Source: Escherichia phage vB_EcoM_ESCO8. From it: DNA of 64,000 nt. Positions 29,591 through 49,402 of this stretch are shown one piece after another (position 1 is the stretch's first letter; the number at the start of each line of letters is the position of its first letter). The position numbers and the translations under genes are program-made. The stretch lies in sequence record OM386653.1; one strand, 5' to 3'. The notes below the pieces were generated by a model. The model had not been told where the DNA came from and ran no database searches. It saw nothing but the letters and a program-made list of their open reading frames with translations.

Positions 29591-29746
29591 ATGCTTACAG
29601 ATGATGAATATAAAGCTATCCAAGAAAAACTAACGGAACTTGAAATTCTTGCTGTCAATATTAAAGATCAATCACATGCTGGAAAGTTACTACATCAAGA
29701 GATCAATAAAATTAAGCAGATGATATTCTTTTGGACGGAGGATTAA
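29591..29746 (+). CDS. hypothetical small protein (51 aa)
   Basis: Manually read ORF MLTDDEYKAIQEKLTELEILAVNIKDQSHAGKLL...; RBS AAAGGGGAAG. Confidence 0.35.
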   Translation: MLTDDEYKAIQEKLTELEILAVNIKDQSHAGKLLHQEINKIKQMIFFWTED

Positions 29747-29748
29747 AA

Positions 29749-31964: not shown

Positions 31965-31973
31965 GGAGAAAGT

Positions 31974-32180
31974 ATGGCAGGTGTTTTAGCAGTATTAGGT
32001 TGTTTTATTGTTGTGTTTTTGATTGTGTTAATCCCTAGTTGGCTACTGCTTTTAGCATACAACTATATGATTGACATTATCGGCTTAGACTGGCATCATG
32101 TTCCTGTAACGTTTTGGAGTGTAGTCTGTGTGACGTTCATTCTTGCGGTACTTCGTGGTATCTTTCAATCTAACAAATAA
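31974..32180 (+). CDS. hypothetical small membrane protein
   Basis: ORF track 68 aa; two TM helices. Confidence 0.45.
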   Translation: MAGVLAVLGCFIVVFLIVLIPSWLLLLAYNYMIDIIGLDWHHVPVTFWSVVCVTFILAVLRGIFQSNK

Positions 32181-32194
32181 GAGAGGATTTTTAT

Positions 32195-32443
32195 ATGCGT
32201 AAAGTAAATGTTGAAGTGCTTGAAAAATTTAGAAACACTCGTGATTGTACTATCGGCAAGGTTTACGAGGCTATTCTCCTTGAAGATGGAGATCAAGTTC
32301 CTGCCCCGTATCACGCCTTTAATGGTCAAATCAGCAAAGTGGAAGGTGGTCTTGCTATTTGCTTTATTGATGACGTAGGTGATGCTGTAGCTTTCCCTGT
32401 CATTAACAAAGAAGATAAACTTAAAATTACAGAACTGAACTAG
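32195..32443 (+). CDS. hypothetical protein
   Basis: ORF track 82 aa. Confidence 0.5.
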   Translation: MRKVNVEVLEKFRNTRDCTIGKVYEAILLEDGDQVPAPYHAFNGQISKVEGGLAICFIDDVGDAVAFPVINKEDKLKITELN

Positions 32444-32471
32444 TTGACTTTCTTTAAAAACAGTTTATAGT
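32444..32471 (+). promoter_or_regulatory. sigma70-like promoter with leader hairpin ahead of TerC gene
   Basis: TTGACT-16nt-TATAGT followed by CATAGAG and hairpin GCGGAGGA-ttgt-CCTCCGC (32484-32502), same architecture as early-array promoters. Confidence 0.5.
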
Positions 32472-32520
32472 ATAAGACATAGAGCGGAGGATTGTCCTCC
32501 GCATTAAAGAGGAGAAAAGA

Positions 32521-33498
32521 ATGCAACTGGGTTTCCCAATTATTGATGTGGTTGTTTTAGTGGGTATTTTAGTCTTGTCGATTTGTATTGACTTCTTTGG
32601 ACACAGAGAAAACAAAGAAATTTCATTTAAATCTGCAATTGGCTGGTCAATTTTCTGGATTGGGGTATCATTAGCCTACTATGGTTTTGTATACTTCCAA
32701 CACGGTGCTGATTTTGCGAGCTTGTTCTTGAGTGGGTATGTGTTGGAGAAATCTCTTTCTGTAGATAACTTAGTAGTATTTGTAGCAGTATTCGCAAGTT
32801 TTGGTATTAAAAGCACACACTTGCAGCACAAGATTCTACTTTGGGGTATTGCAGGTGCGATTGTCTTCCGAGGTGTGTTTGTAGCAGTAGGTACTTACTT
32901 GTTGAGTTTGGGCTGGTATGTTAATATCTTCTTCGGTGCTGTCATCCTTTTCTGTGCGGCTAAAATGGTATTCGCTGGAGATAATGATGCAGAAGTTGAT
33001 TACTCTAAACACTGGGCTACTCGCATTGTTCGTAAGCTGTTCCCTGTATCTGATCAGATGGATGGTGAGAAGTTCTTCACAATCAAAAATGGTGTTCGTG
33101 TAGCAACTCCGGCTCTGGTTTGTGTGTTTGTAATGGAAATGGTTGACGTAATCTTTGCAGTAGACTCTGTTCCAGCAGTAATTGCAGTGACACAAGAACC
33201 TCTGCTGGTGTTCTCTTCGATGCTCTGTGCAATCTTAGGTTTACGTGCTCTGTTCTTTGTTCTTAGTGTTGCACTGAAGTATTTGGTTCATCTGGAGAAA
33301 GCAGTTATCGTAGTCCTGGTGTTTGTGGGTGTAAAACTGATGTATCACCCGTTTGCAGAAACTCTGCACGCAAAAGTGAGTTTCCTGCCAGCACACATTG
33401 ACCCGACGATCAGTATGTATATTGTGTTAGGTACTCTTGGGCTGGGTGTTCTTGCAAGTTTAATCTTCCCTGAAAAAGAAGACCAGGCTGTTGCTTAA
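32521..33498 (+). CDS. TerC-family integral membrane protein
   Basis: 325 aa, multi-TM; conserved EKSLSVDNLVVF and DVIFAVDSVPAV motifs. Confidence 0.75.
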   Translation: MQLGFPIIDVVVLVGILVLSICIDFFGHRENKEISFKSAIGWSIFWIGVSLAYYGFVYFQHGADFASLFLSGYVLEKSLSVDNLVVFVAVFASFGIKSTHLQHKILLWGIAGAIVFRGVFVAVGTYLLSLGWYVNIFFGAVILFCAAKMVFAGDNDAEVDYSKHWATRIVRKLFPVSDQMDGEKFFTIKNGVRVATPALVCVFVMEMVDVIFAVDSVPAVIAVTQEPLLVFSSMLCAILGLRALFFVLSVALKYLVHLEKAVIVVLVFVGVKLMYHPFAETLHAKVSFLPAHIDPTISMYIVLGTLGLGVLASLIFPEKEDQAVA

Positions 33499-33504
33499 TT
33501 CATT

Positions 33505-33528
33505 AAGCCCCTTCGGGGGCTTTATTGA
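33505..33528 (+). terminator. Rho-independent terminator
   Basis: AAGCCCC-ttcg-GGGGCTT followed by TATTGA. Confidence 0.55.
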
Positions 33529-33537
33529 GGTGATCTG

Positions 33538-33744
33538 ATGGTGGTTTTACGTGTTCTTTGGATTCTGTTTGAAAATATTTGTTTTGCTCTAGGTTTGTTT
33601 TGTTTGATTTTTATCTTGACAACATATATTGATAACCATACAATTACTATCAACAGGAACGGAGAACAGATGTATTGTTTCTCTAGGGATTTTAAAAATT
33701 GTGTTGAGATTTTAAATGAGAGGGTTACAAATGAAAAACATTAA
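33538..33744 (+). CDS. hypothetical small membrane protein
   Basis: ORF track 68 aa. Confidence 0.35.
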   Translation: MVVLRVLWILFENICFALGLFCLIFILTTYIDNHTITINRNGEQMYCFSRDFKNCVEILNERVTNEKH

Positions 33745-34321
33745 ATCTTTTATTGTTGCAGTTGTTTTAGGTAGTGCATTGCTGGTAGGTTGTGATGATT
33801 CTGAAAATGTACAAAATCAACGTTACCAACAAACACCAAATCAGATGGTAGATGAACAATATGTAAATCAGCCTGCACCTCAAGTTGTTCAAGCAGCACC
33901 TGCACAACCTTCAACAGTTGTTGTGCAAGGAGGCGGCAGTGGTTCTTCTGGCGTAGGTGAGTTTGCTACAGGTATGCTTCTTGGTCATATGTTGAGTGGT
34001 AATAGTGGCGGTGGTGGTTATAGAGATGGCGGTAGCAATACAACAATTATCAATAACAACGCTGCTCCTACAACTAATAGTAAAGCATATACAACACAAA
34101 AGCATAGGTTTTATGATAAACAAGGGAATACATATACAACCACTAAACAAAACACAATTAAGCAGCAAAGTGTACAAACGTATTCACGCCCATCAACAAC
34201 AAAAGTGAATAGTGATTACTCTGCTCGTAAGTCTTACTCAAGTCCTATTAGCTCTTATAGTAAGTCTTCGAAAAGTTATTCTTCGTCGAAACGTAGTTTT
34301 AGTAGCTCACGTCGTCGTTAA
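33731..34321 (+). CDS. Putative lipoprotein with Ser/Tyr-rich low-complexity tail
   Basis: Start MKNIKSFIVAVVLGSALLVGC (lipobox LVGC) after GAGAGGG RBS; G-rich and S/Y/K-rich C-terminus. Confidence 0.5.
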   Translation: MKNIKSFIVAVVLGSALLVGCDDSENVQNQRYQQTPNQMVDEQYVNQPAPQVVQAAPAQPSTVVVQGGGSGSSGVGEFATGMLLGHMLSGNSGGGGYRDGGSNTTIINNNAAPTTNSKAYTTQKHRFYDKQGNTYTTTKQNTIKQQSVQTYSRPSTTKVNSDYSARKSYSSPISSYSKSSKSYSSSKRSFSSSRRR

Positions 34322-34356
34322 TAATTTAATACAGATTAAATAAGAAGGAGAAACAG

Positions 34357-35208
34357 ATGAAACTAGAAGTTGGTAAAGTGTATCGCCTGGAAGGTTGGAT
34401 CTTTAATCAAGAAATTCTTGAGAAGAATAAAGATGGTTTTGAGTTTGTTGGTACTACCAAGGAAAGTATGCACAATGACGAATACTGTAAATTCGTTGGT
34501 AAAAATACAGGTCAAGAACAATTTTGCTTTAAGAGCGCAATCGGTGATTATGCTTCTGTAATGCCAACACCAGAAAAGACTTCGAAGCAATATACTGTCT
34601 TTGGTGTAAAACTTGAAGAACTTGTAGAACACCCACGTTTTGAAGAGTTCAAGGTTGCTGCAATGCGCAAGCATTCTGAAATTAAAATACATAATTTGTT
34701 TGATTTAGAAGATCGGTTTGATATCTTTATGTATGATCGCAGGGAAAAGCATTTTGATGCAACGACTTCAAAATTTGCTGCAACAGAGGATATTAAAATC
34801 CTTGATGTTGATACCTTTCTTGAGAGTGTATCGTTTGTATTCATTCCTAAATACAAAAAACGTAGTGATCATAAACGTGTGAAAGGAACTCCTCGTAAAA
34901 AACGTACTGTAAACAAAGCAACTTTGCACTTCACTTCTGGTGATAAATATACTCTCAAAGGGTTTGAAAGTGTTTTGTATGATGCTGGAACGGGTAATAT
35001 CAAGTTTATCATTAAGGCAACCTACAAAGGTACGGTATTGCACGAAGAGGCTGTTACACTACCTGTATTCGATATCTCTCGTGTTGAGGTACGGGGTGTT
35101 AAAGAGTCCTTCGATCTGGATTTCTTAACTGCTAATACCACGGGTTATGTTAATCTGGAAGCAGATGGAGCATTTATTACTACAAATTATTTAGATATGT
35201 TTGTTTAA
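34357..35208 (+). CDS. hypothetical protein
   Basis: ORF track 283 aa. Confidence 0.55.
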   Translation: MKLEVGKVYRLEGWIFNQEILEKNKDGFEFVGTTKESMHNDEYCKFVGKNTGQEQFCFKSAIGDYASVMPTPEKTSKQYTVFGVKLEELVEHPRFEEFKVAAMRKHSEIKIHNLFDLEDRFDIFMYDRREKHFDATTSKFAATEDIKILDVDTFLESVSFVFIPKYKKRSDHKRVKGTPRKKRTVNKATLHFTSGDKYTLKGFESVLYDAGTGNIKFIIKATYKGTVLHEEAVTLPVFDISRVEVRGVKESFDLDFLTANTTGYVNLEADGAFITTNYLDMFV

Positions 35209-35276
35209 TACTTAACTTGTGTTATGATGGTGGTATAGAAGTATCACCATCTACTAAAGAATATGGAGGAAATTGA

Positions 35277-36380
35277 ATGTCCAGTCCTTTTATCAGTGCC
35301 GTAAAAAGCAAACCGTCTGAAATGAGTGTATTCACGGCAACAACAGAAAAAAGTAAGTCTTTGTTTGCTCCAACTGCTATGGATGCAAGTCCTGTATATG
35401 CCCCTGCTGTTGCACGACCTGTACAAATGCTGCCTCCAATGTCTCGTGAAGAGATTGAACAGGTTGGTGCTGATGCAGGACTTACTCTTCGTAACCTTAA
35501 TGCTGAAGTGCTTAAACACCAGCGTTCATCTCAGGGAGATGAAATGAGTGAACGTTTAACTGCGCTTATTAAGCAAGCAAAGCAACTTGATCCTAACTCT
35601 ATTAAACAATCTAAAGGTTTAGGTAAACTAGTTAAGAAAGTTTTAGGTATGAAAGAAGATTTGTTTGGAGAATTTGACACCATCAATAACCGTATTGAAG
35701 GTTTGGTAAAGACACTCCAAACAGACTTGAAAAAAGAAGAAGATTCTTTACGATATCTGCAACGTTTAGAAGAGGCTATTGCAAAATATGCCCTTAGTTT
35801 AAACAGGGATATAGAGCTTCTAACAGCTACTTATGAAAAAGAAGAAATTCGCCTTAATACACTGCCTGAAAATGAGGTAGAAGAGCGTCAACGTACTCGT
35901 GATACTATGGATCTGCTTGAAATTCGTATTGCAGACCTGAAAGCCTTACGCTTACTATGTGTTCAGATGGGGCCACGTGTACAAAGTATGCAGAAAGTAT
36001 CTGCAAGTTTGATGCGATCAGCCCGTAATATTGTGAATAATGTTATCCCTGCTTACTCTGCAAACTTTTCTATGCATATTGAAAGTCTACGCCAGAAGAA
36101 AGCAGCCGATACACAGAACAATGTACTAAATGAATTTAATGCTGCTATTGCAATGGGTAGTGATTTGGCTGCACAAAACCAAATTGAAGCTACACAACTT
36201 GCTAATCGTCAAGTATTGGATATTGAAACATTACGTCGTGATCAAGAAAACTTGGTTAAAATGTTGGAAGAAACTAACCGAATCAACACTGAAGCCCGTG
36301 CTGCTCGTATTGATTACATTCAAGAAGTGCAATCTCTTGAAGATGGTATGATTCAAACTGTTAAACGTGGTCTACTTTAA
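35277..36380 (+). CDS. TelA-like (toxic anion resistance family) protein, tentative
   Basis: 367 aa, predominantly coiled-coil, size and context (between TerC and TerD/vWA) fit TelA/KlaA family; not confirmed by motif. Confidence 0.4.
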   Translation: MSSPFISAVKSKPSEMSVFTATTEKSKSLFAPTAMDASPVYAPAVARPVQMLPPMSREEIEQVGADAGLTLRNLNAEVLKHQRSSQGDEMSERLTALIKQAKQLDPNSIKQSKGLGKLVKKVLGMKEDLFGEFDTINNRIEGLVKTLQTDLKKEEDSLRYLQRLEEAIAKYALSLNRDIELLTATYEKEEIRLNTLPENEVEERQRTRDTMDLLEIRIADLKALRLLCVQMGPRVQSMQKVSASLMRSARNIVNNVIPAYSANFSMHIESLRQKKAADTQNNVLNEFNAAIAMGSDLAAQNQIEATQLANRQVLDIETLRRDQENLVKMLEETNRINTEARAARIDYIQEVQSLEDGMIQTVKRGLL

Positions 36381-36393
36381 GGAGAAATATATT

Positions 36394-36600
36394 ATGAATA
36401 TTAAAATTTACAAACTGTCTGGTTCTATGATTGCTGTTCAGTATGATAATGAAGATCGTTATGTTCTCCTCCAGGATGCTTGGTTAGATGATCCTAATGT
36501 ATTCACTGTCCTGCGAGAACTACGTTCTGTCTATACCTATTCTTCTAAAGATGGTTTTGACAATTCAACGATGGAATTGGTAAAAGAGGAGAATGTGTAA
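36394..36600 (+). CDS. hypothetical protein
   Basis: ORF track frame trimmed to ATG after GGAG RBS. Confidence 0.45.
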   Translation: MNIKIYKLSGSMIAVQYDNEDRYVLLQDAWLDDPNVFTVLRELRSVYTYSSKDGFDNSTMELVKEENV

Positions 36601-36800
36601 TGAGTAAAGATATTCACTTAACTCGTGAAGAATTGCAAACCATTATGGAAGATGCTTTCATTGATGGTTGGAAACAAGGTCAAGAATCAGATTGGTATGA
36701 TGCCGAAGATTTTTTGTATTATCATATGACTGCACCTGTAGACGAGCAAACACACTCTGAAACAACTTTGGCTTTAATTGATCTTAAGGCTGGTGTATAA
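36600..36800 (+). CDS. hypothetical protein sharing motif with C-terminus of next gene
   Basis: 66 aa; LTREELQTIMEDAFIDGWKQG matches ISLNELQKITREAFYLGWKVG in 36800..37363. Confidence 0.45.
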   Translation: MSKDIHLTREELQTIMEDAFIDGWKQGQESDWYDAEDFLYYHMTAPVDEQTHSETTLALIDLKAGV

Positions 36801-37363
36801 TGGGGTGTTTTAGTTTCTTGTGCAAAGAGTCTGGTAATGCTGCTCTTTCTACCTCTTTTGATGGCTCTCCTTGCTACCTATTTCTTTTGAAAGGTGGTAA
36901 GGTTGTCGAAGAGATGTATGGGAATTATGATAGCTATGGTAGTGTTTTCTCTAACGAAGAAGATAAACATGGCAATCGTAAAAGATTTAAGTGGTCTATG
37001 CCTTGGGAAGAAGTTTGTAATTTGATGTTCTCTTCCGATCTTGGAGATGGGATTGCTCTGGTATTAGAAGAGCACTTTACAGGTGAGATCCCAACAGAAA
37101 GATCTGAAGAAGATCCTAACCAGGGTTGGGGTGATGGAGAAGAAGATCCAGATTGCTTCTTCAACACTGAAAATAATAAATTTAAACGTGTTGACAATCC
37201 TTACCACAAAGTGCATAATACTTGCATTGAGACAGAAGAAGACTCAAAGCTAGAAATTGAAGATGATTTAGTTGTAACTATCTCTTTAAACGAGTTGCAA
37301 AAAATCACTAGAGAGGCTTTCTATTTAGGTTGGAAAGTAGGTAAAGGAGGAGATAGTGCTTAA
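36800..37363 (+). CDS. hypothetical protein
   Basis: ORF track 187 aa. Confidence 0.5.
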   Translation: MGCFSFLCKESGNAALSTSFDGSPCYLFLLKGGKVVEEMYGNYDSYGSVFSNEEDKHGNRKRFKWSMPWEEVCNLMFSSDLGDGIALVLEEHFTGEIPTERSEEDPNQGWGDGEEDPDCFFNTENNKFKRVDNPYHKVHNTCIETEEDSKLEIEDDLVVTISLNELQKITREAFYLGWKVGKGGDSA

Positions 37364-37625
37364 ATTTAATATCAAAGACGACAAATCAGATGAACCTAAA
37401 TGTTTTGGAGAACTTGACGTAGGTGATACATTTGTATATTATGTTGCCTATCAAGATTCTGGTTTAGATACGTTCAGAAACTTAGTGTTTATTAAAGTTA
37501 ATACAAACCAAGCAATGTGTCTGAACGGTTCGCAAAGAGGTCAACTTAGCTGTATTTCGTATGATACAGAAATGGTAGAAGTGGATTTAGAAGTTACTAA
37601 CATTACACTCAGAAAGGAGAAATAA
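37356..37625 (+). CDS. hypothetical protein
   Basis: ORF track 89 aa; GTG start. Confidence 0.4.
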   Translation: MLKFNIKDDKSDEPKCFGELDVGDTFVYYVAYQDSGLDTFRNLVFIKVNTNQAMCLNGSQRGQLSCISYDTEMVEVDLEVTNITLRKEK

Positions 37626-37626
37626 T

Positions 37627-38421
37627 ATGTCCAATAAAATCAGTCTTAAAAAACGTCAAGAAACTCTTACCGTATCTCTGCGTAAGAAAAAGATTAACGA
37701 TGTTGTTCTTCGTGTCGGTAGCGCCTTAGATATTTCGGGTAGTATGTGTGAGCTGTATCGTGATGGCACTGTTAGTGATTTTGTAGGTAAGCTACTGCCG
37801 TTTGGTATGAAGTTTGATGATAATGCACAGATTGACATGTGGGCTTTCAATAGTTCTTCTTTTGAACTGCCTCCTGCAACGGCTGATGTATATGATGATT
37901 ATGTCGGCTCTTGTATGTCTAATGTTTGCATCAATGGTGGTACAGCTTATGCTCCAGTAATGCAAGAGATCTATGATACATACTTCGGTAGTGTACCTAT
38001 GAAAAATATTACACGCGAAGTCGTTGAGTATGAAGAAGTTCCGGCTAAGGGTTTCCTTGCTAAACTAACTGGTAAAAAAGAACGTGTAGAAGTTACACGT
38101 ACTGTTGTAGAACAGGTTGTAGATACTGATGCACAAGTTGATCGTACTCCTGCAATGATTTTCTTCCAAACTGACGGGGAGAACATGGATACTTCAGCAG
38201 TACGTAGTTTGCTGAACAAACACCGCAACACTCCTGTTTACTGGTTTATGGTTGGTGTAGGTAATGCAAACTTTAAATTCCTGAAAGACTTGGCAAAAGA
38301 ATACGATAACGTTGATTTTATCGGTATTGCAGATTTGTCCTTGTCTGACGAAGAACTTTACGATAAACTGCTATCCGAAGAGTTTGGCGAGTGGGTTAAA
38401 AAATTTGGAGCAAAAGCGTAA
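37627..38421 (+). CDS. von Willebrand factor A (vWA) domain protein (TerY-like)
   Basis: 264 aa; MIDAS motif LDISGSM near N-terminus, later FFQTDGEN; adjacent to TerD. Confidence 0.6.
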   Translation: MSNKISLKKRQETLTVSLRKKKINDVVLRVGSALDISGSMCELYRDGTVSDFVGKLLPFGMKFDDNAQIDMWAFNSSSFELPPATADVYDDYVGSCMSNVCINGGTAYAPVMQEIYDTYFGSVPMKNITREVVEYEEVPAKGFLAKLTGKKERVEVTRTVVEQVVDTDAQVDRTPAMIFFQTDGENMDTSAVRSLLNKHRNTPVYWFMVGVGNANFKFLKDLAKEYDNVDFIGIADLSLSDEELYDKLLSEEFGEWVKKFGAKA

Positions 38422-38493
38422 AAAACGCTTGACTTTGTAGAAAAGATTAGTAAAATAGACAACGTAAATTAACAACAAAGGAGATAATAAATT

Positions 38494-39090
38494 ATGACTC
38501 AGAAAATTTCCCTGAAAAAAGGTTCTAGCGAAAAAGTTTCTCTGAAAAAGATTGCACCAGCACTGAAACGCATTCGTCTGGAATTCTCTTGGAAATCTAA
38601 CGAAAAACTGGATCTGGATGTTAGTGCTCTGATTTGCCGACACAATGCATCTGGTCTGCCGGAACTGTTGTCTCCTCGCCACCTGGTATGCTACGCACAG
38701 AAATTTGATCCTGAACGTTCTACTTTTGCAGGTGAAGATGTTCGTGACGGTGTAGGACAAATGGAGCAGATTGATGTTACACTGGATAATATCTCTGCTG
38801 AAGCACAGGAAATTGCATTCGTAATCACTATTGATGACGAAACGGGTAAGAAACGCCTTGGTCACGCTACCGAAGGTTTCCTTAAAATCTTCGATGATGA
38901 ACGTAACGTTGAACTGCTGGATTTTGACTTCTTGGCTCCAGAACTTGCAGGTAATACCATTTGCCACGTTGCCTCCCTGGTGCGGGAAGATAGCGAATGG
39001 AAACTGAAAGCATATGGTGTAGGTAAAGCTGGACTTGACATTTATGATGTAGTTAAAGCGTTTGGCGCTGGCGACGATTGGTTCGAGTAA
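38494..39090 (+). CDS. TerD-family protein
   Basis: 198 aa; ISLKKGSSEKVSLKK, DLDVSAL, ITIDD, EWKLKAYGVG pattern matches TerD/TerE/TerZ family as recalled. Confidence 0.75.
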   Translation: MTQKISLKKGSSEKVSLKKIAPALKRIRLEFSWKSNEKLDLDVSALICRHNASGLPELLSPRHLVCYAQKFDPERSTFAGEDVRDGVGQMEQIDVTLDNISAEAQEIAFVITIDDETGKKRLGHATEGFLKIFDDERNVELLDFDFLAPELAGNTICHVASLVREDSEWKLKAYGVGKAGLDIYDVVKAFGAGDDWFE

Positions 39091-39837: not shown

Positions 39838-40347
39838 TTGTCAATAAAAACCTTTGTCGCAATTGCGTTACTATCCTTAACTGCTTTTACATTTACACCT
39901 GTTGTGGCGCAAGCCGAAGCTGCAAACGTAAAAACTGCTAAAGTAGTTCACAAGTGTACAAAGCGTGATAGTAAAGAAAATCTATTAGCTTGTGCAATCT
40001 ATGCAGAAAGTCGTAATCAAGGAAAGCGAGGTATGTCTGCTGTTGGTAATGTAGTATTGAATAGGGCTAGAGATTCATATTTCCCTGATACTATAAAAGA
40101 AGTTTTGTTTCAAAAAGGACAATTCTCTTACACAAAGACATTCAACGTTATGGAACGTGATAAGTGGAAGGAAGCTAAGACTATAGCAGAACGTCTACGT
40201 TATCTCGATACGCATTTTCCAGAATTACGAATTGCATTAGATATTACAAAAGGAGCATTATACTTTAAAAAATCTACAATAAGAGCACACTGGGAAAAAG
40301 ATATGGTTCTAGTGTACCGCTACAAAGAACATCAATTCTATCGCTAA
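39838..40347 (+). CDS. Cell-wall hydrolase (SleB/Hydrolase_2-like) with signal peptide
   Basis: TTG start after AGGAGG RBS; signal peptide ending AQA; LACAIYAESRNQG...GNVVLNRAR motif. Confidence 0.55.
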   Translation: MSIKTFVAIALLSLTAFTFTPVVAQAEAANVKTAKVVHKCTKRDSKENLLACAIYAESRNQGKRGMSAVGNVVLNRARDSYFPDTIKEVLFQKGQFSYTKTFNVMERDKWKEAKTIAERLRYLDTHFPELRIALDITKGALYFKKSTIRAHWEKDMVLVYRYKEHQFYR

Positions 40348-40866: not shown

Positions 40867-41038
40867 TACTGGCGAAGTTGTAAAATCTTGGGATGATCTT
40901 AGTGGTATCCCTACAGATAAATTGATTAAACTGCGTGATGTTTGTCGTGATCATCTTAATGAAACGTATAAAGAGTATATGGAAGCACGAGATCACAGTT
41001 TAGCTATCCAAATGGAACTCGCAAAACGTAATCAATAG
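40844..41038 (+). CDS. hypothetical protein
   Basis: ORF track 64 aa. Confidence 0.4.
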   Translation: MKTIGINDTGEVVKSWDDLSGIPTDKLIKLRDVCRDHLNETYKEYMEARDHSLAIQMELAKRNQ

Positions 41039-41095
41039 GTAAAACCATTTAGACTTTTTAGTCTAAAAATGCTAAAGTAATAATACGGAGGGAGT

Positions 41096-41659
41096 ATGAT
41101 ATTTCACATAACTCCCTATCTTTCTGGAGATATTGGAAAAGGTATCAATGACACAATAAGTGTCTTACCAGAAGATAGTTGGATTTGCCTAAGAGACATT
41201 GATACAATGTTTCTTCTTCCAGAACAACCTGCTTGGCTGGAATCAATAGTCCGTTCAAATCCTGATTTTGATGTTCTTGGTGCATCTTGTAATAGATTGG
41301 GATCAACATATCAATTATTTAATAATGAAAGAAGTGAAGATCCGAATATACTACACCACATTGAGATTGCAAAAAGAGCACATCTAGAATGGGGAAACTC
41401 AATAGAGGAAGTACCTACAGATGCTATCTTAGCAGGATTCTTTCTTCTCTTTCGTAAGAGTCTGTGGAATGAAATCCCTTTTGAGGAAAGATCAATACAG
41501 TTTGATATAATTTTCTCTAAAGCATTGCACGCTAACAATAAAAGGCTAGGTTTACTACGTGGGTTATATTTATTTCACACATACCGTTTAGGTAATGATG
41601 ATCCTAGAAAAGCTATTTCACACCTTTTACATTGTCAAGACATGAATAAAATTATTTAA
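41096..41659 (+). CDS. hypothetical protein (possible nucleotide-sugar transferase fold)
   Basis: ORF track 187 aa; DxD-like LRDIDTMF; assignment weak. Confidence 0.45.
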   Translation: MIFHITPYLSGDIGKGINDTISVLPEDSWICLRDIDTMFLLPEQPAWLESIVRSNPDFDVLGASCNRLGSTYQLFNNERSEDPNILHHIEIAKRAHLEWGNSIEEVPTDAILAGFFLLFRKSLWNEIPFEERSIQFDIIFSKALHANNKRLGLLRGLYLFHTYRLGNDDPRKAISHLLHCQDMNKII

Positions 41660-41668
41660 GGAGTTATT

Positions 41669-42355
41669 TTGGAAAATACAAAAATTGGTGTTGGTGTTAT
41701 TACTGTAGGTAAGCGTCCTCTTAAAGATTATCTTGTGACTGATCCTAATGCTACTTTTGTTGTACAGTATGATCGGGAGCGAAAAGGTGTTGCATATGCT
41801 CGTAATGAACTGATGAAAAAGTTTTATGATGAAGGGTATGATTACTGGTTTATTTTTGATGATGATTGCTATCCTGTTGTTCAAGGTTGGGAAACATATT
41901 TTGTAAAACAGGCGAAGGAAAATGGTTGGGATTTCTTTGGTATGCCTGAATACTTTAAAGATAAAGTAAAAGGTATTGAAGGGGAAGTGGTTATTTGGGA
42001 ACTAGGTATGTGCCAGTTTGGTATGTATTCCCGTGCAGTTATTGAGAAAGCTGGCTATTTCCGCTCATACACCCACGGTTATGGATATGAAGATGCAGAG
42101 TGGATTCATCGCGTTCCACTGGCAGGTTTGAACCGAGGTATTCAAGGCGTGCCATGTCCTATTCGAATTATGGCGTTTATCCATCCTGATGATGTATTTG
42201 GAGACAATCCTTTACCTTTTGCGAATCTGTCAAAAGAAGAGAAAGAACAGGGGATTGGTGTAAACTGGGAACAATATAAACAATCCTTGGAGGATCTTCG
42301 CAATGGTAAAACTTTTATCTCTTATGAGGAGGCTCAAAAATATGGTAAATCCTAA
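41669..42355 (+). CDS. Putative glycosyltransferase (GT-A-like)
   Basis: 228 aa, TTG start; Rossmann-like N-terminus and FIFDDDCYP DxD-type motif. Confidence 0.45.
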   Translation: MENTKIGVGVITVGKRPLKDYLVTDPNATFVVQYDRERKGVAYARNELMKKFYDEGYDYWFIFDDDCYPVVQGWETYFVKQAKENGWDFFGMPEYFKDKVKGIEGEVVIWELGMCQFGMYSRAVIEKAGYFRSYTHGYGYEDAEWIHRVPLAGLNRGIQGVPCPIRIMAFIHPDDVFGDNPLPFANLSKEEKEQGIGVNWEQYKQSLEDLRNGKTFISYEEAQKYGKS

Positions 42356-43316
42356 TACTCCTGTACTTAAGTGTGATAATAAGTTAGGCAGTGGTTGTGA
42401 TTACCATCGTATTGTAATGCCATTTGCTGGAAATACGTTTAAACCTAAGAAAGACGTTTTAGTTTTTAATAGAGTGTATTCTCGTGGAGCAGACGAGGTT
42501 AAACGCCTGAAGGCACAAGGTGTTAAGATTATTGTTGATTTAGATGACTTTTATTCACTTAATCCTGAACATTATATGGCTGGCGTATTTACTAATCATT
42601 CAAAGACTATTGTAGAGATGGTTAAGTTAGCAGATGTTGTTACTGTAACAACAGAATACCTAGCTTACAAAATTCGTCATTTAAATCGTAATGTTGTCGT
42701 AATTAGAAACGCACTACCTTACGACGAAGGTCAATTTACTTTGACAAAAGACCGTAATTCTGACACGCCTATTATCTGGGCTGGAGGAGCAAGCCACGAG
42801 CCTGATTTATCTCTTGTAGCTAATACATTTGATGATACACTATTGACAATTGCAGGGTATGAAGTGTATCCTTCTGCACCTGTTGGAAATAACAGTCAGT
42901 ATCTAACTACTGCGGAGTGGGTTAAAATAAAACGTAAAATTCCAAATGCACAGTATAAACCAGCTATTAAAAATTTAGGTGAGTATATGTCTGTGTATGA
43001 CGGTCACAGCATTGCAATTGCTCCCCTGGTAGATAATGACTTCAACAACTGTAAAAGCAATTTGAAGATTTTGGAAGCAGGTGCAAAGGGTCTTCCTATT
43101 ATCTGTTCTCCTGTGCTGCCGTACTTCAATCCGGTAGATGCAAAGGCTGTTATCTATGCAGACTCTAAAGCATCTTGGCATTATGAAGTTGTCAAGCTAA
43201 TGAGGAACCCTAGATACACAGAAGATCGTGGTATGATGCTTGCAGAACACGTTCGTCTTAATTATAATCTTGCAGATGCCAATGAACTGCGTCGTCAAGT
43301 TATTGAAAGTCTTTAA
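42342..43316 (+). CDS. Putative glycosyltransferase (GT-B-like), paralog 1
   Basis: Start ATG after AGGAGG; LKILEAGAKGLPIICSP motif; paralog of 43328..44272. Confidence 0.5.
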   Translation: MVNPNTPVLKCDNKLGSGCDYHRIVMPFAGNTFKPKKDVLVFNRVYSRGADEVKRLKAQGVKIIVDLDDFYSLNPEHYMAGVFTNHSKTIVEMVKLADVVTVTTEYLAYKIRHLNRNVVVIRNALPYDEGQFTLTKDRNSDTPIIWAGGASHEPDLSLVANTFDDTLLTIAGYEVYPSAPVGNNSQYLTTAEWVKIKRKIPNAQYKPAIKNLGEYMSVYDGHSIAIAPLVDNDFNNCKSNLKILEAGAKGLPIICSPVLPYFNPVDAKAVIYADSKASWHYEVVKLMRNPRYTEDRGMMLAEHVRLNYNLADANELRRQVIESL

Positions 43317-43327
43317 CAAGGAGTTAT

Positions 43328-44272
43328 ATGCCTAATATTATTCTTGACACACGCGGAAATGAAAAGTATAGTGTATGTGATTTTCATAGAATCATTTTGC
43401 CATATAAACGCAAACTGACCATTAATCCTAAGCATAATATTTTTGTGTTCAATGGTGTACCAACACGTGGAAAGCCAGGTTTCCTGGCTCTTAAACAACT
43501 TGGGTTTAAATTGGTAATGGATCTGGATGATTCTTTAATTATTCCTGAAGGACATATGCTTGAAGGACTATTTGAAAATCAAATCCGAGATGACCTAAAA
43601 TGGTTTCTTGAAAGAAGCGATCTTGTAACTACAACAACTCCGGCATTAAAGGTTGAATTAAGCCAATACAATGATAATGTACATATTGTGCCTAACGGAC
43701 TACCTTTTGATGAAGGACAGTTTGTTCTTACTAAAGATCGTTATTCTAAAAGTCCACTGGTTTGGGCGGGAAGTGAAACCCATAAACATGATTTAGCAAT
43801 TCTTCCTGATTTTGGTAAAGATTTAACTTTATGTGGATTTCGTAGAGATCACGAAGAGTTAAGTAGTGCTCAATGGTTGCAAATTAAAGAAGATATTCAA
43901 CCAGATTGTGTTTATGAAGGTATTCGTCCTTATGAGTGTTATATGGAAGCATACGATGGTCATCAAATCTCCATAGCTCCATTAGTAAATAATCATTTTA
44001 ATAATGCCAAAAGTAATTTAAAAATTCTTGAAGCTGGTGCTAAAGGTTTGCCACTCGTTTGTTCGCCACGAGAGAACTATTATACTGAAGAATTTAAAGA
44101 TCTAATCTTCTTTGCTGATTCAGTTAAAGAGTGGAAAGATATTGTAGAATACTTAATCGAATCTCCTGATGTTTGTATTGAGAAAGGATTGGCTCTTGCT
44201 AAGTATGTAAGAGATAACTACAATATTGATGATTTAAATGAAACCCGCAGACTGCTTATCGAGGATTTATAA
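43328..44272 (+). CDS. Putative glycosyltransferase (GT-B-like), paralog 2
   Basis: 314 aa; shares GQF.LTKDR, ISIAPLV.N.FNN.KSNLKILEAGAKGLP blocks with 42342..43316. Confidence 0.5.
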   Translation: MPNIILDTRGNEKYSVCDFHRIILPYKRKLTINPKHNIFVFNGVPTRGKPGFLALKQLGFKLVMDLDDSLIIPEGHMLEGLFENQIRDDLKWFLERSDLVTTTTPALKVELSQYNDNVHIVPNGLPFDEGQFVLTKDRYSKSPLVWAGSETHKHDLAILPDFGKDLTLCGFRRDHEELSSAQWLQIKEDIQPDCVYEGIRPYECYMEAYDGHQISIAPLVNNHFNNAKSNLKILEAGAKGLPLVCSPRENYYTEEFKDLIFFADSVKEWKDIVEYLIESPDVCIEKGLALAKYVRDNYNIDDLNETRRLLIEDL

Positions 44273-44541
44273 TGAACACTTTTGATTTTGAGTATAAACA
44301 AGATAATAAAGAACCTATTATTGTTGAAGTAGATTACTATTATGAAGAACCTAACCCTTTCTCACGAGAAAGTGATTGGGATTATTATGGTGGTCTTATT
44401 GTTGATGGTATTAGGTTTTATTCTGGTACAAAAGAACTTTTTGATATAGATATTTCCCCATCGGAAATTGTTTACCAATTTAAGAAACATATGGAAGATT
44501 TGGAAATGCAATATATTATGGAGACAAACGAATCATTTTAG
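44272..44541 (+). CDS. hypothetical protein
   Basis: ORF track 89 aa. Confidence 0.5.
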   Translation: MNTFDFEYKQDNKEPIIVEVDYYYEEPNPFSRESDWDYYGGLIVDGIRFYSGTKELFDIDISPSEIVYQFKKHMEDLEMQYIMETNESF

Positions 44542-44553
44542 TAGGAGAATCCT

Positions 44554-46326
44554 GTGTCTTATGTTGTAAATAAATATGGGTATAACATTGATCTAAGTCA
44601 AGAAGGACATACTGGGTGTCCTCGTTGTATGAAAGGAGGGCGTGATCGATCACAAAACAATTTGATGGTATATGGCTTAGATGCCGATGAAGACCATCGA
44701 GGCGCACATTGTTTTTCTTGTGGCTTTACTATCCCTGATCAAAAATGGTTAAATGCACACGGCGAAGAAATTGAAGAGGAGGATATCTTGGGTAGTGAGT
44801 TTAATCCAGAAGTACATGATAAACTAAAAGCCAGCACTGGAACTAATCCAAAAGGTTATCGCGGTATTCGTGAAGATATCTCTAAGCCTTTCGGTGTACG
44901 TTATATGTACGATGAAGCTACTGGCGAAGTAATTTCAACACTATACCCTACAACTAAAGATTACAATATTGCTGGGTATAAACAACGTATCGATCCAAAA
45001 GATTTCTCGCATCCTATCGGTGAAACAGGAAAGGATTGTGATCTTTTTGGGGAGTTTAAATATCGTAACCACAGCGGTACTATTCTAATCGTTGGTGGTG
45101 AACACGATATGCTGGCTGCAACACAGATGCTAAAAGATTATAACAAGGGTGGTAAATATCCTGTTCCTGCTGTAGTATCTGGTACTTGTGGCGAAACATC
45201 TCTGCATAAGCAGCTTCAACATCGTTATAAATTCTTAGATCAATTTAAAAAGATTGTTCTATGTATGGATAATGATGAAGCTGGACGTGCAGCAGTTGAG
45301 AAATGTGTTAAAATCTTACCACGTAATAAAGTTTACGTGATGGAACTAACGGATGTTAAAGATCCTAACCAGGCACTAGTAGAAGGAAAAATTGATCATT
45401 TTATTGATCGCTTTTTCAAAGCTAAATTGTACACACCTGCTGGTGTTTACGCTTCTAACGTACTGTATGAAGCAGCCTTGGAATGCCTGGAAGCTAAAAT
45501 GATCACCCTTCCTCCATTCATGCGTGTTGCTTCTAATATGTTAGGTGGAGGCTTGGTAGAAGAAGAAATTACTGTTATACTTGCAAAAACAAGTATCGGT
45601 AAGACACTGTTGGTTAACGAGATTACAAAGCACATTATTCTTGCACATCCAGAACATACTCTTGGTATTTTATCTTTGGAGGCAACGTATAAGAAGTATT
45701 CTCGTAACTTACTGTCTTCATTCTTGCATATCCCTCTTCACCGTAAAACGAAAGAAGAGAAGGAAAAGATTTTAAAAGATAATGAAGAAAAGATTCGTGA
45801 TTTTTACGAACGAGAAGATGGAACACCACGTTTCTATGTTTGTGATGATCGTGGAGCTAACGTAGATGTGATTAAAGAGAAGGTTCTGGAAATGATTATT
45901 TATTTCGGAGTAACCATTCTTGTTATCGACCCTTATTCTGATTTGCTTTCTGGTATGGACGTGTCACAACAAGAGGAACTTGCGACGTGGCTGAAACGCA
46001 TTATGAAAGAGTATGCAATAACCATTGTTGTAATTTCACACGTTAAAAAGTCTTCTAACAATAGTAATGAACATATTGTAGAAGATGATGCAATGGGTAG
46101 TAGCTTCCTTGCTAAAGGTGCTGGTATCACAATTGCGCTGGAGCGTGATAAACAAGCTGAAGATCCTATGGAACGTAACCGCACATATTGCTACATTCTA
46201 AAGAACCGTGAGTTCTCAGAGACTGGTGCAGCAGGTAGTTTCTTCTATGAGATTAAAACAGCTACACTTCACGATTACGATCAATACACAAGTAACCCAG
46301 AGAACATCTCTGCTGGTTCTTATTAA
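44554..46326 (+). CDS. Bifunctional DNA primase-helicase (T7 gp4-like)
   Basis: GTG start; N-terminal Zn ribbon CPRC...CFSCGF, TOPRIM-like GGEHDM and CMDNDEAGR, C-terminal helicase Walker A KTSIGKT and Walker B VIDPY. Confidence 0.8.
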   Translation: MSYVVNKYGYNIDLSQEGHTGCPRCMKGGRDRSQNNLMVYGLDADEDHRGAHCFSCGFTIPDQKWLNAHGEEIEEEDILGSEFNPEVHDKLKASTGTNPKGYRGIREDISKPFGVRYMYDEATGEVISTLYPTTKDYNIAGYKQRIDPKDFSHPIGETGKDCDLFGEFKYRNHSGTILIVGGEHDMLAATQMLKDYNKGGKYPVPAVVSGTCGETSLHKQLQHRYKFLDQFKKIVLCMDNDEAGRAAVEKCVKILPRNKVYVMELTDVKDPNQALVEGKIDHFIDRFFKAKLYTPAGVYASNVLYEAALECLEAKMITLPPFMRVASNMLGGGLVEEEITVILAKTSIGKTLLVNEITKHIILAHPEHTLGILSLEATYKKYSRNLLSSFLHIPLHRKTKEEKEKILKDNEEKIRDFYEREDGTPRFYVCDDRGANVDVIKEKVLEMIIYFGVTILVIDPYSDLLSGMDVSQQEELATWLKRIMKEYAITIVVISHVKKSSNNSNEHIVEDDAMGSSFLAKGAGITIALERDKQAEDPMERNRTYCYILKNREFSETGAAGSFFYEIKTATLHDYDQYTSNPENISAGSY

Positions 46327-46822: not shown

Positions 46823-49402
46823 ATGGGAGCTTTTACTTTCGACATTGAAAGTAACAACTTGCTTAATGACGAAAGTGTAGATTACTTGGCAAGTCCATAT
46901 CGTTTAAAAGATAGTTTTGCAATGCACTGTATTGTGTGCGAAAGTCATGATACTGGAGAGATTATTGCTTTCCATGATGGTGATAAATATCTTTTCGATG
47001 GTCGTCCGTATGTTGAGACTGACGGAAAGTATGAATACCGACTGGAGGAATATGAGCATTTAGAATATACCCATTTCCCTCTTAAAGATTTTCCTGATTT
47101 TGTAAATGGAACAGGTAAATTTAAAGGTAATTCAAACTATAAAATTACCAAAGTAGTTGGACATAACATCATTAACTTTGACTTACTGGCAATTAAATTA
47201 TTTTTTAAACTCAACTACAGTATTAAGTACAATACTTGGGGTAATAGTAACATTGAAATTTGTGATACTATGATCTTAAGTAAGACACTAAACCCTGATC
47301 GCTTCGGTGGTCATAGTCTGGCAGAGTTATCTAAGAAAGCTGGAGGGGATGTTAAAATTGATTTTAGAAAAAACATTCCTGAAACTGAAAGATTTAAAAC
47401 ATTTGCAGCAGATATGCTGTATTACTGTATTTACGATAACAAAGCTAACACCGCAGTGTTCCGTTATTTGATGGAAGAGTGGGGTGATTATAACAAGTGG
47501 TCTGAACCATTTAACTTAGAACAACGTGTAGCTGATATTATTACACGTCAAGAGCACCGTGGCTTTGCTTTCAATATGAAACAAGCAGAAGATAATATTC
47601 GTGATCTGGATGCTCGAATGGAAGCATGTCGTTTAGAGGCAGAACCTGTGCTACCTCCTAAACCTGCTACTAAAGGTTATTTGAAATCATTCATTCCACC
47701 TAAACTACAGTTTAAAAAGAATGGTGAACCTTCAAGTAACATGATAAAGTTTGCAGAGAAACATTCTGGTGAACTTGTACAAAAAGAAGATGGTTGGTGG
47801 CTATTTGCATTAGGTAAAGAGTTTAAACTACCTATTCCAGCAGAAGAACCTATTTGTGATCCTACAGTACCTGCTACTTTAGACGACACTACACATATTA
47901 AAAACTGGTTAGTTGGTTTAGGTTGGAGTCCATCTGAATATAAAGATAAAGATATCACTCTTAAATCTGGCACTAAGATTAAGAAAGATGAAGCACAAAT
48001 GGAGAAAGCTATTCGTGACTATGTTGATCAAACATTAGCATCTAACTTCTGCCAGGACAGATGTGATCATCTGGAGTGCACACCAGAAACTTTGGAATGG
48101 AAACTAAGAGATCGTATTGCTAAAGCTAAAGGTCGTGGTGTTAAAGTGCTTACGAACCCTTCCTTTACAAAAGGGCAAGAGAAAGATATTTGTCCTAACT
48201 TGGAAGCACTAGGTGAAAAGTTTCCTTATGCTACGCAGATTGTGCAGTATCTTACGTATAAACACCGTAGGAACTCTATTCTAGGGGGTGGTGCTGATTG
48301 GGAAGAAGATGAAGAGGATTACGATAAAGGTTATCTGGCAGCAGTAAGGGCTGATGGTCGTATACCAACTCCTGCTGCAACGTGTGATGCAGCTACGTCT
48401 CGTATGAAACATAGGCTAGTAGCAAATATCCCACGTGTAACATCTCTGTACGGATATGAAATGCGTAACTTATTTGGTGTAGAAGTTCCAAAATACTTCC
48501 AAATTGGTTATGACTTTGATTCTCTTGAGGCAAAAATAGAATCACACTACTGTTGGCGGTACGAGCAGGAACCACACGAATATTGTAATGCTCTGTTATT
48601 GGAAAAACCTAATGACGTTCATACAATGATGGCTCGACGTATTTCTGACACTATTGGTCGTAAGTTTGAACGAAGCCCTGCTAAATCTGTTAAGTATGGT
48701 ATTACTTATGGTGCTCAAGCTGCAAAAGTAGCAAAAACTATAGGTAGTGATATGTATACAGGACAGCTTGTATACGATGCTTTCTGGGAAGCTGCAAAAC
48801 CTCTTGCGCTTCTTAAAGAACGTCTGCATGACTTTTGGGTTAAAACAGGTAAGAAATACATTCTGGGTATTGATGGTAGGAAAGTACCTACACGATCTGC
48901 ACACGCAATACTTAACTCTCTGTTCCAGAGTGGTGGTGTTATTTGTGCAAAAAGAGCAATGGTTATCTACGACGATCTTATCGAAGAAGAAGGATTAGCT
49001 GTTGACTTTTTTGTTGATGACTGGAAAAATAAGTCATTCGTTCAACAAATGATTGCATATCACGATGAAGCACAGCTTGAAGTAACTCGTGATCTGGTGC
49101 ATTTTAAATGGTTCTCTAAAGAATCTTTAGGTTGGACTCAAGTTGATGATCCAGAAGAACAAAAGAAAATTGATAAAGAATGTTTGGATAAAGTTAATGC
49201 CTGGAAAGAAGAGGAAGAGAAACGTACTGGCAAGATTTGGGCTAACGTACATGAATCTCCGAAAGGTGGTTGGTTTACAGCCTACAGTCGTGCTGGAGAA
49301 TTAGCATCTATCGCTGTTAATAAAGCTGGTGAGTATTACAATCTTAATGTACCTCTCACTGCTGGTTACGATGTTGGTAACTCATGGGCGTCTTGTCACT
49401 GA
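46823..49402 (+). CDS. DNA polymerase, family A, with 3'-5' exonuclease domain
   Basis: 859 aa; exo I FDIESNNL; pol motif A GYDFDSLEAKI, motif B RSPAKSVKYGITYG, motif C AYHDEAQLEV. Confidence 0.85.
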   Translation: MGAFTFDIESNNLLNDESVDYLASPYRLKDSFAMHCIVCESHDTGEIIAFHDGDKYLFDGRPYVETDGKYEYRLEEYEHLEYTHFPLKDFPDFVNGTGKFKGNSNYKITKVVGHNIINFDLLAIKLFFKLNYSIKYNTWGNSNIEICDTMILSKTLNPDRFGGHSLAELSKKAGGDVKIDFRKNIPETERFKTFAADMLYYCIYDNKANTAVFRYLMEEWGDYNKWSEPFNLEQRVADIITRQEHRGFAFNMKQAEDNIRDLDARMEACRLEAEPVLPPKPATKGYLKSFIPPKLQFKKNGEPSSNMIKFAEKHSGELVQKEDGWWLFALGKEFKLPIPAEEPICDPTVPATLDDTTHIKNWLVGLGWSPSEYKDKDITLKSGTKIKKDEAQMEKAIRDYVDQTLASNFCQDRCDHLECTPETLEWKLRDRIAKAKGRGVKVLTNPSFTKGQEKDICPNLEALGEKFPYATQIVQYLTYKHRRNSILGGGADWEEDEEDYDKGYLAAVRADGRIPTPAATCDAATSRMKHRLVANIPRVTSLYGYEMRNLFGVEVPKYFQIGYDFDSLEAKIESHYCWRYEQEPHEYCNALLLEKPNDVHTMMARRISDTIGRKFERSPAKSVKYGITYGAQAAKVAKTIGSDMYTGQLVYDAFWEAAKPLALLKERLHDFWVKTGKKYILGIDGRKVPTRSAHAILNSLFQSGGVICAKRAMVIYDDLIEEEGLAVDFFVDDWKNKSFVQQMIAYHDEAQLEVTRDLVHFKWFSKESLGWTQVDDPEEQKKIDKECLDKVNAWKEEEEKRTGKIWANVHESPKGGWFTAYSRAGELASIAVNKAGEYYNLNVPLTAGYDVGNSWASCH

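Follow-up and report, generated by a model that had tools for sequence, protein, structure and literature searches.

The stretch of DNA analysed here (64,000 nucleotides (nt) from Escherichia phage vB_EcoM_ESCO8, sequence record OM386653.1; hereafter referred to as the window) carries between positions 41,096 and 44,272 a cassette of four glycosyltransferase (GT) genes, encoding proteins of 187, 228, 324 and 314 amino acids (aa), in this order (Table 1). A reading made from the letters alone (hereafter the sequence-only reading) had described at this place a possible transferase, a GT-A-like gene with a DDD motif and two tandem GT-B-like paralogs, and had supposed that such cassettes either glycosylate modified DNA bases or alter the host surface polysaccharide for seroconversion. 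All four open reading frames (ORFs) were recovered at these positions on the + strand, and each of the proteins belongs to a 'glycosyltransferase' family of PHROGs (E 2e-80 to 6e-149). The cassette is real, its similarities lie beyond chance, and the sequence-only reading was right to see in it a set of GT genes that includes tandem paralogs. The proposed choice between DNA and seroconversion is incomplete, as neither branch fits well and it leaves out a third option, the glycosylation of proteins and especially of virion proteins, which is at least as well supported.

In a megablast search with positions 41000 to 44600, Escherichia phage outra (MN850645), placed in the genus Justusliebigvirus of the subfamily Stephanstirmvirinae and thus phi92-like, was a 100% match, and approximately 55 other phi92-like phages matched at 98-99%. 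The four ORFs correspond to four phi92 genes in order (Table 1). The phi92 record carries notes of a predicted GT fold on these genes, the RefSeq copies in relatives are all labelled 'glycosyltransferase', and the BASEL annotation calls the two GT-B paralogs 'putative disaccharide synthase'. As the cassette is already annotated in public records, its existence is public knowledge and the observation is not new; the enzymes are predicted to be new members of known GT superfamilies. New here are the model-based fold assignment of the gene at 41096..41659, the proposed direction of the GT-B duplication, a putatively mobile GT-A and GT-B core common to prophages together with the GT-B homologs in bacterial adhesin loci, the matching distributions of the GT and rml genes, and a reasoned case against the published idea of DNA rhamnosylation.

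The four glycosyltransferases of the cassette

The genes are closely spaced, and the second and third overlap by 14 nt. An AAGGAG site lies upstream of the TTG start of the second gene. For the third gene, whose longest ORF opens at 42303, the ATG at 42342 has a GAGGAGG ribosome-binding site upstream, and the phi92 annotation starts gp164 at the equivalent position, so that 42342 rather than 42303 is probably the true start of this first GT-B paralog. No convincing terminator-like site was detected within the cassette, and the scan for promoter-like sites (57 against 44 +/- 6 expected) was uninformative. All four proteins are hydrophilic (grand average of hydropathy -0.16 to -0.54) and three of them are acidic (isoelectric point (pI) 5.1-5.6). 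None has a match in NCBIfam or PADLOC, and when the PDB was searched by sequence with three of the proteins singly and with profiles of the two GT-A families, only chance-level matches resulted.

The 187-aa protein has no Pfam, NCBIfam or PDB sequence match. Its model, of high confidence (predicted local distance difference test (pLDDT) 95.0), is a compact GT-A fold, and its DxD motif is invariant, giving substance to what had been called a possible transferase. The 228-aa protein belongs to phrog_2456 (E 2e-80) and also shows a weak match to phrog_842 (beta-glucosyl-hydroxymethylcytosine-alpha-glucosyltransferase). The DDD motif that had been noticed in it lies in the segment FIFDDDCYP; DDD64-66 and E141-D142 are invariant in 17 aligned relatives and R45 is nearly so, and the protein is accordingly predicted from its motifs to be a GT-A-type enzyme. 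Against the Pfam profile of the TET-associated glycosyltransferases (TAGT, PF20691) it scores 24.1 bits (E 3.9e-5), below the gathering cutoff of 27.5, with only residues 16-79 aligned to profile positions 37-100 (64 of the 205 positions). The active-site motifs of the DNA-modifying GT-A enzymes have been described as R...DDD...ED(Y/F) (10.1101/2023.12.21.572611). In the relatives of the 228-aa protein the ED is followed by A, S, T or G where this motif has Y or F. Both DDD and ED occur in many families of GT-A enzymes.

The 324-aa and 314-aa proteins align over their full length with a similarity far beyond chance (41% identity end to end, BLASTP E 8e-82), and the common blocks quoted for them are present as DEGQF(T/V)LTKDR and NN(C/A)KSNLKILEAGAKGLP. 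The AlphaFold2 model of the 314-aa protein (pLDDT 94.5) is a two-Rossmann GT-B fold of GT4-like type; the 324-aa protein, assigned to phrog_7162 (E 6e-149), is predicted to share this fold from its identity to the modelled copy. Only the 314-aa protein exceeds the cutoff of 25 for Pfam Glyco_trans_1_2 (CgeB-like, PF13524) with a score of 26.8, while the 324-aa protein (14.6) stays below every Pfam threshold. Both copies are probably active, because each retains the full set of 18 residues that are invariant among the 32 members of the family alignment. The family motifs include C-D-(Y/F)-H-R near the N-terminus and K-S-N-L-K-x-L-E, which presumably stands where the classic GT4 enzymes have EX7E. 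Thus, the paralogs resemble the GT4-type GT-B enzymes in the Pfam match of one copy and in their group-1 or CgeB-like structural matches, but differ from them in being short, in having motifs of their own and in the lack of an NCBIfam match.

The identity to any solved structure is only 10-15%. In a viral structure library, the named entries among the top 50 matches of the GT-B model are generic group-1 or CgeB-like GTs. The structural neighbours include enzymes with undecaprenyl- or lipid-linked or lipopolysaccharide (LPS) acceptors (PglA/PglH-type 8dqd, 6eji, PimA, WbnH, WaaG, WaaB) and small-molecule GTs (BshA, trehalose- and sucrose-phosphate synthases, a tetrahydrobiopterin GT, SenB). The sequence-only reading had proposed a comparison with the T4 alpha- and beta-glucosyltransferases (AGT and BGT); in the fold search these rank only 16th and 34th, respectively.

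A word-indexed search found 57 clusters of the GT-B family, but the family is larger, with at least 552 relatives in IMG/VR. Every outgroup homolog, whether from a Klebsiella phage, Pseudomonas prophages, Burkholderiaceae or metagenomic phages, scores higher to the 324-aa than to the 314-aa copy; the former therefore appears to be the ancestral copy and the latter its diverged duplicate. Both copies are present in Phapecoctavirus. The Klebsiella relative phi1_175008 carries at the same locus only the small (187-aa type) GT-A and one GT-B, which form the minimal set at this locus in the Klebsiella relatives. The second GT-B gene would thus have arisen by a tandem duplication predating the split between Justusliebigvirus and Phapecoctavirus.

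Distribution of the cassette and its relatives

The close relative EmilieFrey encodes RmlA, RmlB, RmlC and RmlD, all scoring above the NCBIfam equivalog cutoffs, and RmlC was found in outra itself. The phage rml genes lie about 70 kb from the cassette in the phage record, outside the window. The distributions of the GTs and of RmlC were compared across 50,697 phage records as counts per identity band rather than as record-by-record lists. At 95% identity or above, GT-B was found in 53 records, the small GT-A in 54, the 228-aa GT-A in 55 and RmlC in 54; the corresponding counts at 60-80% identity are 74, 77, 71 and 77. Both bands consist of Justusliebigvirus and Phapecoctavirus with 8-10 Klebsiella phages. 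Among the records named 'Escherichia', the tail sheath is found in 219, about twice the 105-106 with the GTs and RmlC, and no Vequintavirus or Seunavirus record occurs among the GT-B and small GT-A matches listed. As judged by these matches, the cassette is found in the same phage groups as a bona fide phage-encoded dTDP-L-rhamnose pathway. In addition, in a divergent viral contig (L034) with the same primase/polymerase synteny, the genes for the small GT-A and the GT-B flank an NDP-hexose 4,6-dehydratase-like gene. Because of the matching distributions and the position of this dehydratase-like gene, at least one of the transferases most likely uses dTDP-L-rhamnose. Approximately 7 kb of the genome is spent on the private rhamnose pathway and the four GTs.

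Four records named 'Campylobacter phage' with Campylobacter jejuni as the host (MG065645, MG065689, MG065639 and MG065650) closely match these coliphage proteins, with GT-B at 99.4% (MG065645, MG065689) and RmlC at 100% (MG065639, MG065689); the GT-B match in MG065650 is 76%, the level of Phapecoctavirus. The host labels are probably wrong or due to contamination.

Homologs of the second and third genes occur together elsewhere. In four Pseudomonas genomes, a homolog of the 228-aa GT-A (42% identity, E 1e-59 to the prophage protein) is directly followed by a GT-B homolog (37-38% identity), and at one annotated Pseudomonas locus the pair is followed by a phage metallopeptidase, the small and large terminase subunits and a portal protein. 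The adjacency is the same in the overlapping genes of the cassette and in these prophages, and the pair of the 228-aa GT-A and the 324-aa GT-B looks like a mobile two-gene core. In other phage contigs, members of the family lie beside packaging or head genes, and the same contigs hold GT2 enzymes, sugar acyltransferases, methyltransferases, a polysaccharide deacetylase or a UDP-galactopyranose mutase. In a census of 150 neighbours from 16 viral lineages, Glycos_transf_2 (8), hexapeptide transferases (4) and terminase domains recurred as Pfam families; no thymidylate synthase or TET family is common to two or more of these neighbours. One uncultured phage contig (L006:116-14823) has a UDP-galactopyranose mutase upstream of the terminase and, between terminase and portal, two small GT-A homologs, a GT2 enzyme, a polysaccharide deacetylase and two methyltransferases, which would make a rich glycan-building set inside a structural module.

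Bacterial homologs of the GT-B are similar over the full length (34-36% identity). In Burkholderia dolosa and Trinickia, with the same synteny, such a homolog adjoins an inverse autotransporter, and in a metagenomic contig a pertactin-type autotransporter. The two former loci (L005:3025-8440 and L025:2807-8960) have one gene order, in which the inverse autotransporter, of the intimin/invasin type, is followed by an unknown protein of some 560 aa and then by the GT; this conserved locus suggests an uncharacterised adhesin-glycosylation system. An adhesin gene adjoining a GT gene is the arrangement typical of dedicated adhesin glycosyltransferases such as the TibC/Aah heptosyltransferases and HMW1C, and the likeness lies in this arrangement, not in a comparison of sequences. 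A link between these adhesins and phage proteins, such as a tail fibre with an 'intimin domain', was sought and dropped, as no match was found at E <= 0.01.

Candidate acceptors of the glycan

The function favoured here, tentatively and at somewhat less than even confidence, is the stepwise assembly of a rhamnose-containing glycan on protein, most plausibly on a virion protein. Four soluble cytoplasmic GTs, two of GT-A type (one modelled, one recognised by sequence) and two GT4-like GT-B paralogs, would act in series during infection and build a short oligosaccharide, with at least one step drawing on dTDP-L-rhamnose from the phage RmlABCD. We infer that the acceptor is most likely not DNA and probably protein. 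The relatives of the enzymes, with their association with terminases, GT2 enzymes, adhesins and a mycobacteriophage GT, point to acceptors other than DNA; the best class of acceptors would be the virion proteins of the phage itself, in capsid, tail or fibres. Parallels for such a system would be the O-glycosylation of virions in mycobacteriophages and the glycosylation of capsids or fibrils in giant viruses.

The relationship to mycobacteriophages extends to the sequences. Boomer gp102, the large GT in the right-end cassette of the cluster F mycobacteriophages, has an N-terminal domain homologous to the 228-aa GT-A (E 5e-14, with 26% identity across some 190 aa), and 351 Mycobacterium phage records match in a search with this GT-A. 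In papers that cite Freeman et al. 2023, the virions of the cluster F phage Che8 are reported to be glycosylated (PMC12363180; PMC11256854) and Che8 gp110 to be essential for the glycosylation of the capsid (PMC12363180). The cassettes of Che8, Corndog and Myrna, as described in these papers, likewise consist of soluble phage GTs without membrane partners, several of which act together on one product. The present system differs from them in its Gram-negative host, its large lytic myovirus, its locus in the replication module and its full dTDP-rhamnose pathway, and also in having no Ser/Thr-rich acceptor tail that tracks with it and in being known from genes alone.

Several observations weigh against a glycan on virion protein. 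No tested cassette protein resembles the glucosyltransferase gp105 of Boomer (E > 0.5), which we take to be the counterpart of Che8 gp110. In the literature covered, which does not include the phi92 proteome paper, no glycosylated protein of these phages was found, and the major capsid and tube proteins have no Ser/Thr-rich C-terminal tail. The association with autotransporters consists of two independent gene arrangements only, and no phage protein was found to resemble the adhesins encoded at the bacterial loci (E <= 0.01). Among the best structural matches of the GT-B, enzymes for sugars, lipids or small molecules are as frequent as those for proteins, and the donor sugar is suggested by distribution, not by sequence specificity. 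The cassette itself lies in the replication module, beside the primase/helicase and the DNA polymerase, as do known DNA-modifying GTs, and two distant relatives also have genes of the family among replication or nucleotide-metabolism genes. In a phage-like contig binned with an Acetivibrio metagenome-assembled genome (L027:371-10739), a GT-B homolog and a second group-1 GT have as neighbours a dATP/dGTP diphosphohydrolase, MazG, ribonucleotide reductase and RecA; such surroundings would suit an editing of the nucleotide pool and provide the chief hint against a non-DNA role of the family.

The tail sheath was also considered as a source of an acceptor signature. In EmilieFrey it ends in a Ser/Asn-rich tail (…NRTANSQNSNSSTVSS). 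Similar sheath tails occur in Vequintavirus and Seunavirus, which are absent among the GT matches listed, and none is found in the cassette-bearing Phapecoctavirus anhysbys; the tail was therefore rejected, as it does not track with the cassette.

Hypermodification of DNA, in which the enzymes would rhamnosylate a modified base of the phage DNA and so evade nucleases, has been proposed as speculation by Olsen et al. 2020, who suggested, for the rml genes of phi92-like phages and Phapecoctavirus, a rhamnosylation of hydroxymethylated nucleotides (PMC7552041), and has been restated since (PMC10844046). It is here considered highly improbable. The position of the cassette directly upstream of the primase/helicase and DNA polymerase genes agrees with it, as do the weak matches of the 228-aa GT-A to TAGT and phrog_842 and the resemblance of its DDD and ED motifs to those of the DNA GT-A enzymes (10.1101/2023.12.21.572611). 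RB69, DLP3 and RL38JI make oligoglycosylated cytosines from sets of several GTs and a phage sugar-nucleotide pathway (PMC13326640), and as in T4 and these phages the genes here lie among replication genes; moreover, the genome encodes a Dcm-like C5 methyltransferase. However, all the known glycosylated pyrimidines receive a hydroxyl handle from a ThyA-family enzyme or a TET dioxygenase (PMC13326640; 10.1101/2023.12.21.572611), and here, unlike in the T4- and RB69-type pathways, no such hydroxymethylase, hydroxylase or dioxygenase was detected. A phmmer search with Escherichia coli ThyA of the six-frame ORFs of the window and of the whole EmilieFrey genome found no homolog (best E 0.97). The thymidylate synthase of EmilieFrey is of the ThyX type, matching only ThyX (TIGR02170; 35.5 bits against an equivalog cutoff of 87.9). 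No Tet_JBP domain was found in 20 hypothetical proteins (136-386 aa), including the neighbours of the Dcm-like gene, in a scan that left out small ORFs and a few other hypothetical proteins and so does not prove that TET is absent. Within 20 kb on either side of the cassette there is no gene for a C5 methyltransferase or a TET/5mYOX dioxygenase, the Dcm-like gene being about 60 kb away. The phages are, besides, reported to be sensitive to restriction: Maffei et al. found the phi92-like Bas60-62 'exceptionally susceptible' to restriction-modification systems despite a 'putative dTDP glycosylation machinery' (PMC8594841), and restriction sensitivity is also described in PMC10844046. Bas61 and Bas62 are further struck by nuclease-based defences that spare the hypermodified T-even phages. 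T4 AGT and BGT, with 12-14% identity, are outranked by many GT4 enzymes, and no cassette protein matches any T4 glucosyltransferase family of Pfam at E <= 0.1; the TAGT match is subthreshold and partial, and a published Hidden Markov Model survey of DNA GT-A homologs in NCBI viral genomes names no Stephanstirmvirinae. A ThyA homolog lies in the flanks of only 2 of the best 80 IMG/VR loci with a family member, the GT-A and GT-B pair is carried by temperate Pseudomonas prophages, and three of the four enzymes are acidic. DNA glycosylation is thus disfavoured, since no ThyA-family or TET enzyme was found, the phages are reported to be restriction-sensitive and the T4 GTs are not the closest folds; for a sparse, site-specific modification a slight chance is left. 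The ThyX-like protein of EmilieFrey (L004:9840-10811, - strand, outside the window), apparently the phage's only thymidylate synthase, is divergent and long (323 aa).

Two further classes of acceptor lie outside DNA and the virion. Remodelling of the host envelope is regarded as unlikely, though less so than the other alternatives: the acceptors would be lipid-linked or core intermediates (LPS core, enterobacterial common antigen, an N4-type glycan receptor, colanic acid), reached by the enzymes from the cytoplasmic side of the inner membrane, and the rhamnose-containing residues would, for example, block superinfection or the adsorption of progeny to debris. The lipid-linked and LPS acceptors of several GT-B structural neighbours agree with this, and dTDP-rhamnose is a classic donor for O-antigen and cell-wall polysaccharides; the GT2 enzymes and sugar acyltransferases beside family members in other phages are typical of polysaccharide loci. 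Several surface glycans are recognised by the phages, which depend on the LPS core (PMC8594841; PMC11990801), and, as with GtrABC and O-antigen acetylases, a sugar transferred by a phage enzyme could alter a surface-glycan receptor. But neither the cassette nor its neighbourhood encodes a flippase, polymerase or GtrA/B/C-like membrane partner: unlike in Gtr-type seroconversion systems, no GtrA flippase, bactoprenol GtrB or integral-membrane GtrC is present in the annotated 43 kb of the region, and the four proteins are hydrophilic and soluble. As the phage is lytic, classical seroconversion would be of no obvious benefit, and the envelope already in place would presumably stay unchanged within one lytic cycle. 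In Pseudomonas prophages and in small phages, the module is grouped with genes for packaging and the head and not with those for lysogenic conversion. An acceptor elsewhere in the cytoplasm, either a non-structural protein of host or phage (for takeover or anti-defence) or a small molecule such as the predicted nucleoside-like product of the adjoining Ter-type gene cluster, appears still less probable. It would suit the position of this 9-kb cluster (HAD hydrolase, PRTase_3, Macro, TerC, TelA, vWA-TerF, TerD) immediately upstream on the same strand, the small-molecule GTs among the GT4-like neighbours and the BASEL label 'putative disaccharide synthase', and the rhamnosylation or glycosylation of host proteins by bacterial effectors is established. 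Yet the phi92 record notes a PVP-SE1 homolog for at least one Ter-type gene and none for the four GTs, the Klebsiella relative retains the Ter genes while its GT set at the locus is down to two, and in prophages and small phages the GT module occurs without Ter genes in the examined flanks. There is no PADLOC or defence-related match, and four GTs with a dedicated sugar pathway would suggest a bulk product rather than a regulatory modification.

Should the glycan indeed be placed on virion proteins, these might be the first Gram-negative phages to decorate their own virion proteins with a phage-built rhamnose glycan by means of a mobile GT-A and GT-B module, a more far-reaching proposal that is best regarded as doubtful. 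The module also appears to circulate in Pseudomonas prophages and many uncultured phages, and its GT-B in bacterial autotransporter-adhesin loci. To our knowledge, virion glycosylation has so far been known only from actinobacteriophages and giant viruses, and the phenomenon would be extended to Gram-negative phages. As common coliphages with a broad host range, the phi92-like and phAPEC8-like phages are under consideration for therapy and biocontrol, and glycosylated virions would matter for their recognition by antibodies, for stability in the gut and for how therapeutic phages are cleared. Should the envelope be modified instead, this would be a novel way for a lytic phage to remodel a receptor. 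The idea of DNA rhamnosylation is repeated in the literature; the present analysis makes it unlikely and points to virion proteins and envelope glycans.

Genes neighbouring the cassette

The Ter-type stress-response cluster (29731-39090) lies directly upstream of the cassette (Table 1). Anantharaman, Iyer and Aravind (2012) reportedly predicted that such sets of Ter genes make a nucleoside-like metabolite. As a functional partner of the cassette the cluster was rejected, and a link is unlikely, because the cluster and the GT set vary independently. The PVP-SE1 homolog noted for a Ter-type gene, with none for the GTs, suggests that the cluster is also the more widely distributed of the two.

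Table 1. Genes of the glycosyltransferase cassette and of its surroundings in the window
Feature	Position	Strand	Remarks
Small GT-A-fold glycosyltransferase, 187 aa (predicted from model)	41096..41659	+	phi92 gp166 homolog; invariant D34-x-D36
GT-A-type glycosyltransferase, 228 aa (predicted)	41669..42355	+	phi92 gp165 homolog; TTG start; invariant DDD64-66, E141-D142
GT-B glycosyltransferase, putative ancestral-type copy, 324 aa	42342..43316	+	phi92 gp164 homolog; homology to modelled paralog
GT-B glycosyltransferase, putative diverged tandem duplicate, 314 aa	43328..44272	+	phi92 gp163 homolog; GT-B model
HAD hydrolase	29731-30405	+	Ter-type cluster
PRTase_3/ComF-like	30398-31255	+	Ter-type cluster
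Macro-domain protein	31131-31964	+	Ter-type cluster
TerC	32521-33498	+	Ter-type cluster
TelA	35277-36380	+	Ter-type cluster
vWA-TerF-like	37627-38421	+	Ter-type cluster
TerD	38494-39090	+	Ter-type cluster
SleB-like cell-wall hydrolase	39838-40347	+	Pfam Hydrolase_2, E 3e-19
Very acidic small protein, 89 aa	44272-44541	+	phi92 gp162; pI 4.1
DNA polymerase	46823-49402		2580 nt

The small acidic protein encoded downstream of the GT-B genes shares a start/stop overlap with the last of them. It also follows the GT-B in the Klebsiella phage phi1_175008, and the phi92 record notes a PVP-SE1 homolog (gp008) for gp162; for these two reasons it is probably a gene of the replication module rather than a member of the cassette.

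Between the Ter-type cluster and the cassette, the SleB-like hydrolase has a hydrophobic, signal-like N-terminus and lies in the replication/early region, far from the lysis genes; in EmilieFrey, a second annotated endolysin is encoded elsewhere. The DNA polymerase gene has the same length in EmilieFrey as in the window, compared with 3315 nt in phi92 (record positions 96335-99649; L002:13936-17250). This difference implies an insertion of about 735 nt in the phi92 polymerase gene only, possibly an intein or homing element, and a split or spliced NrdD is also annotated in phi92.

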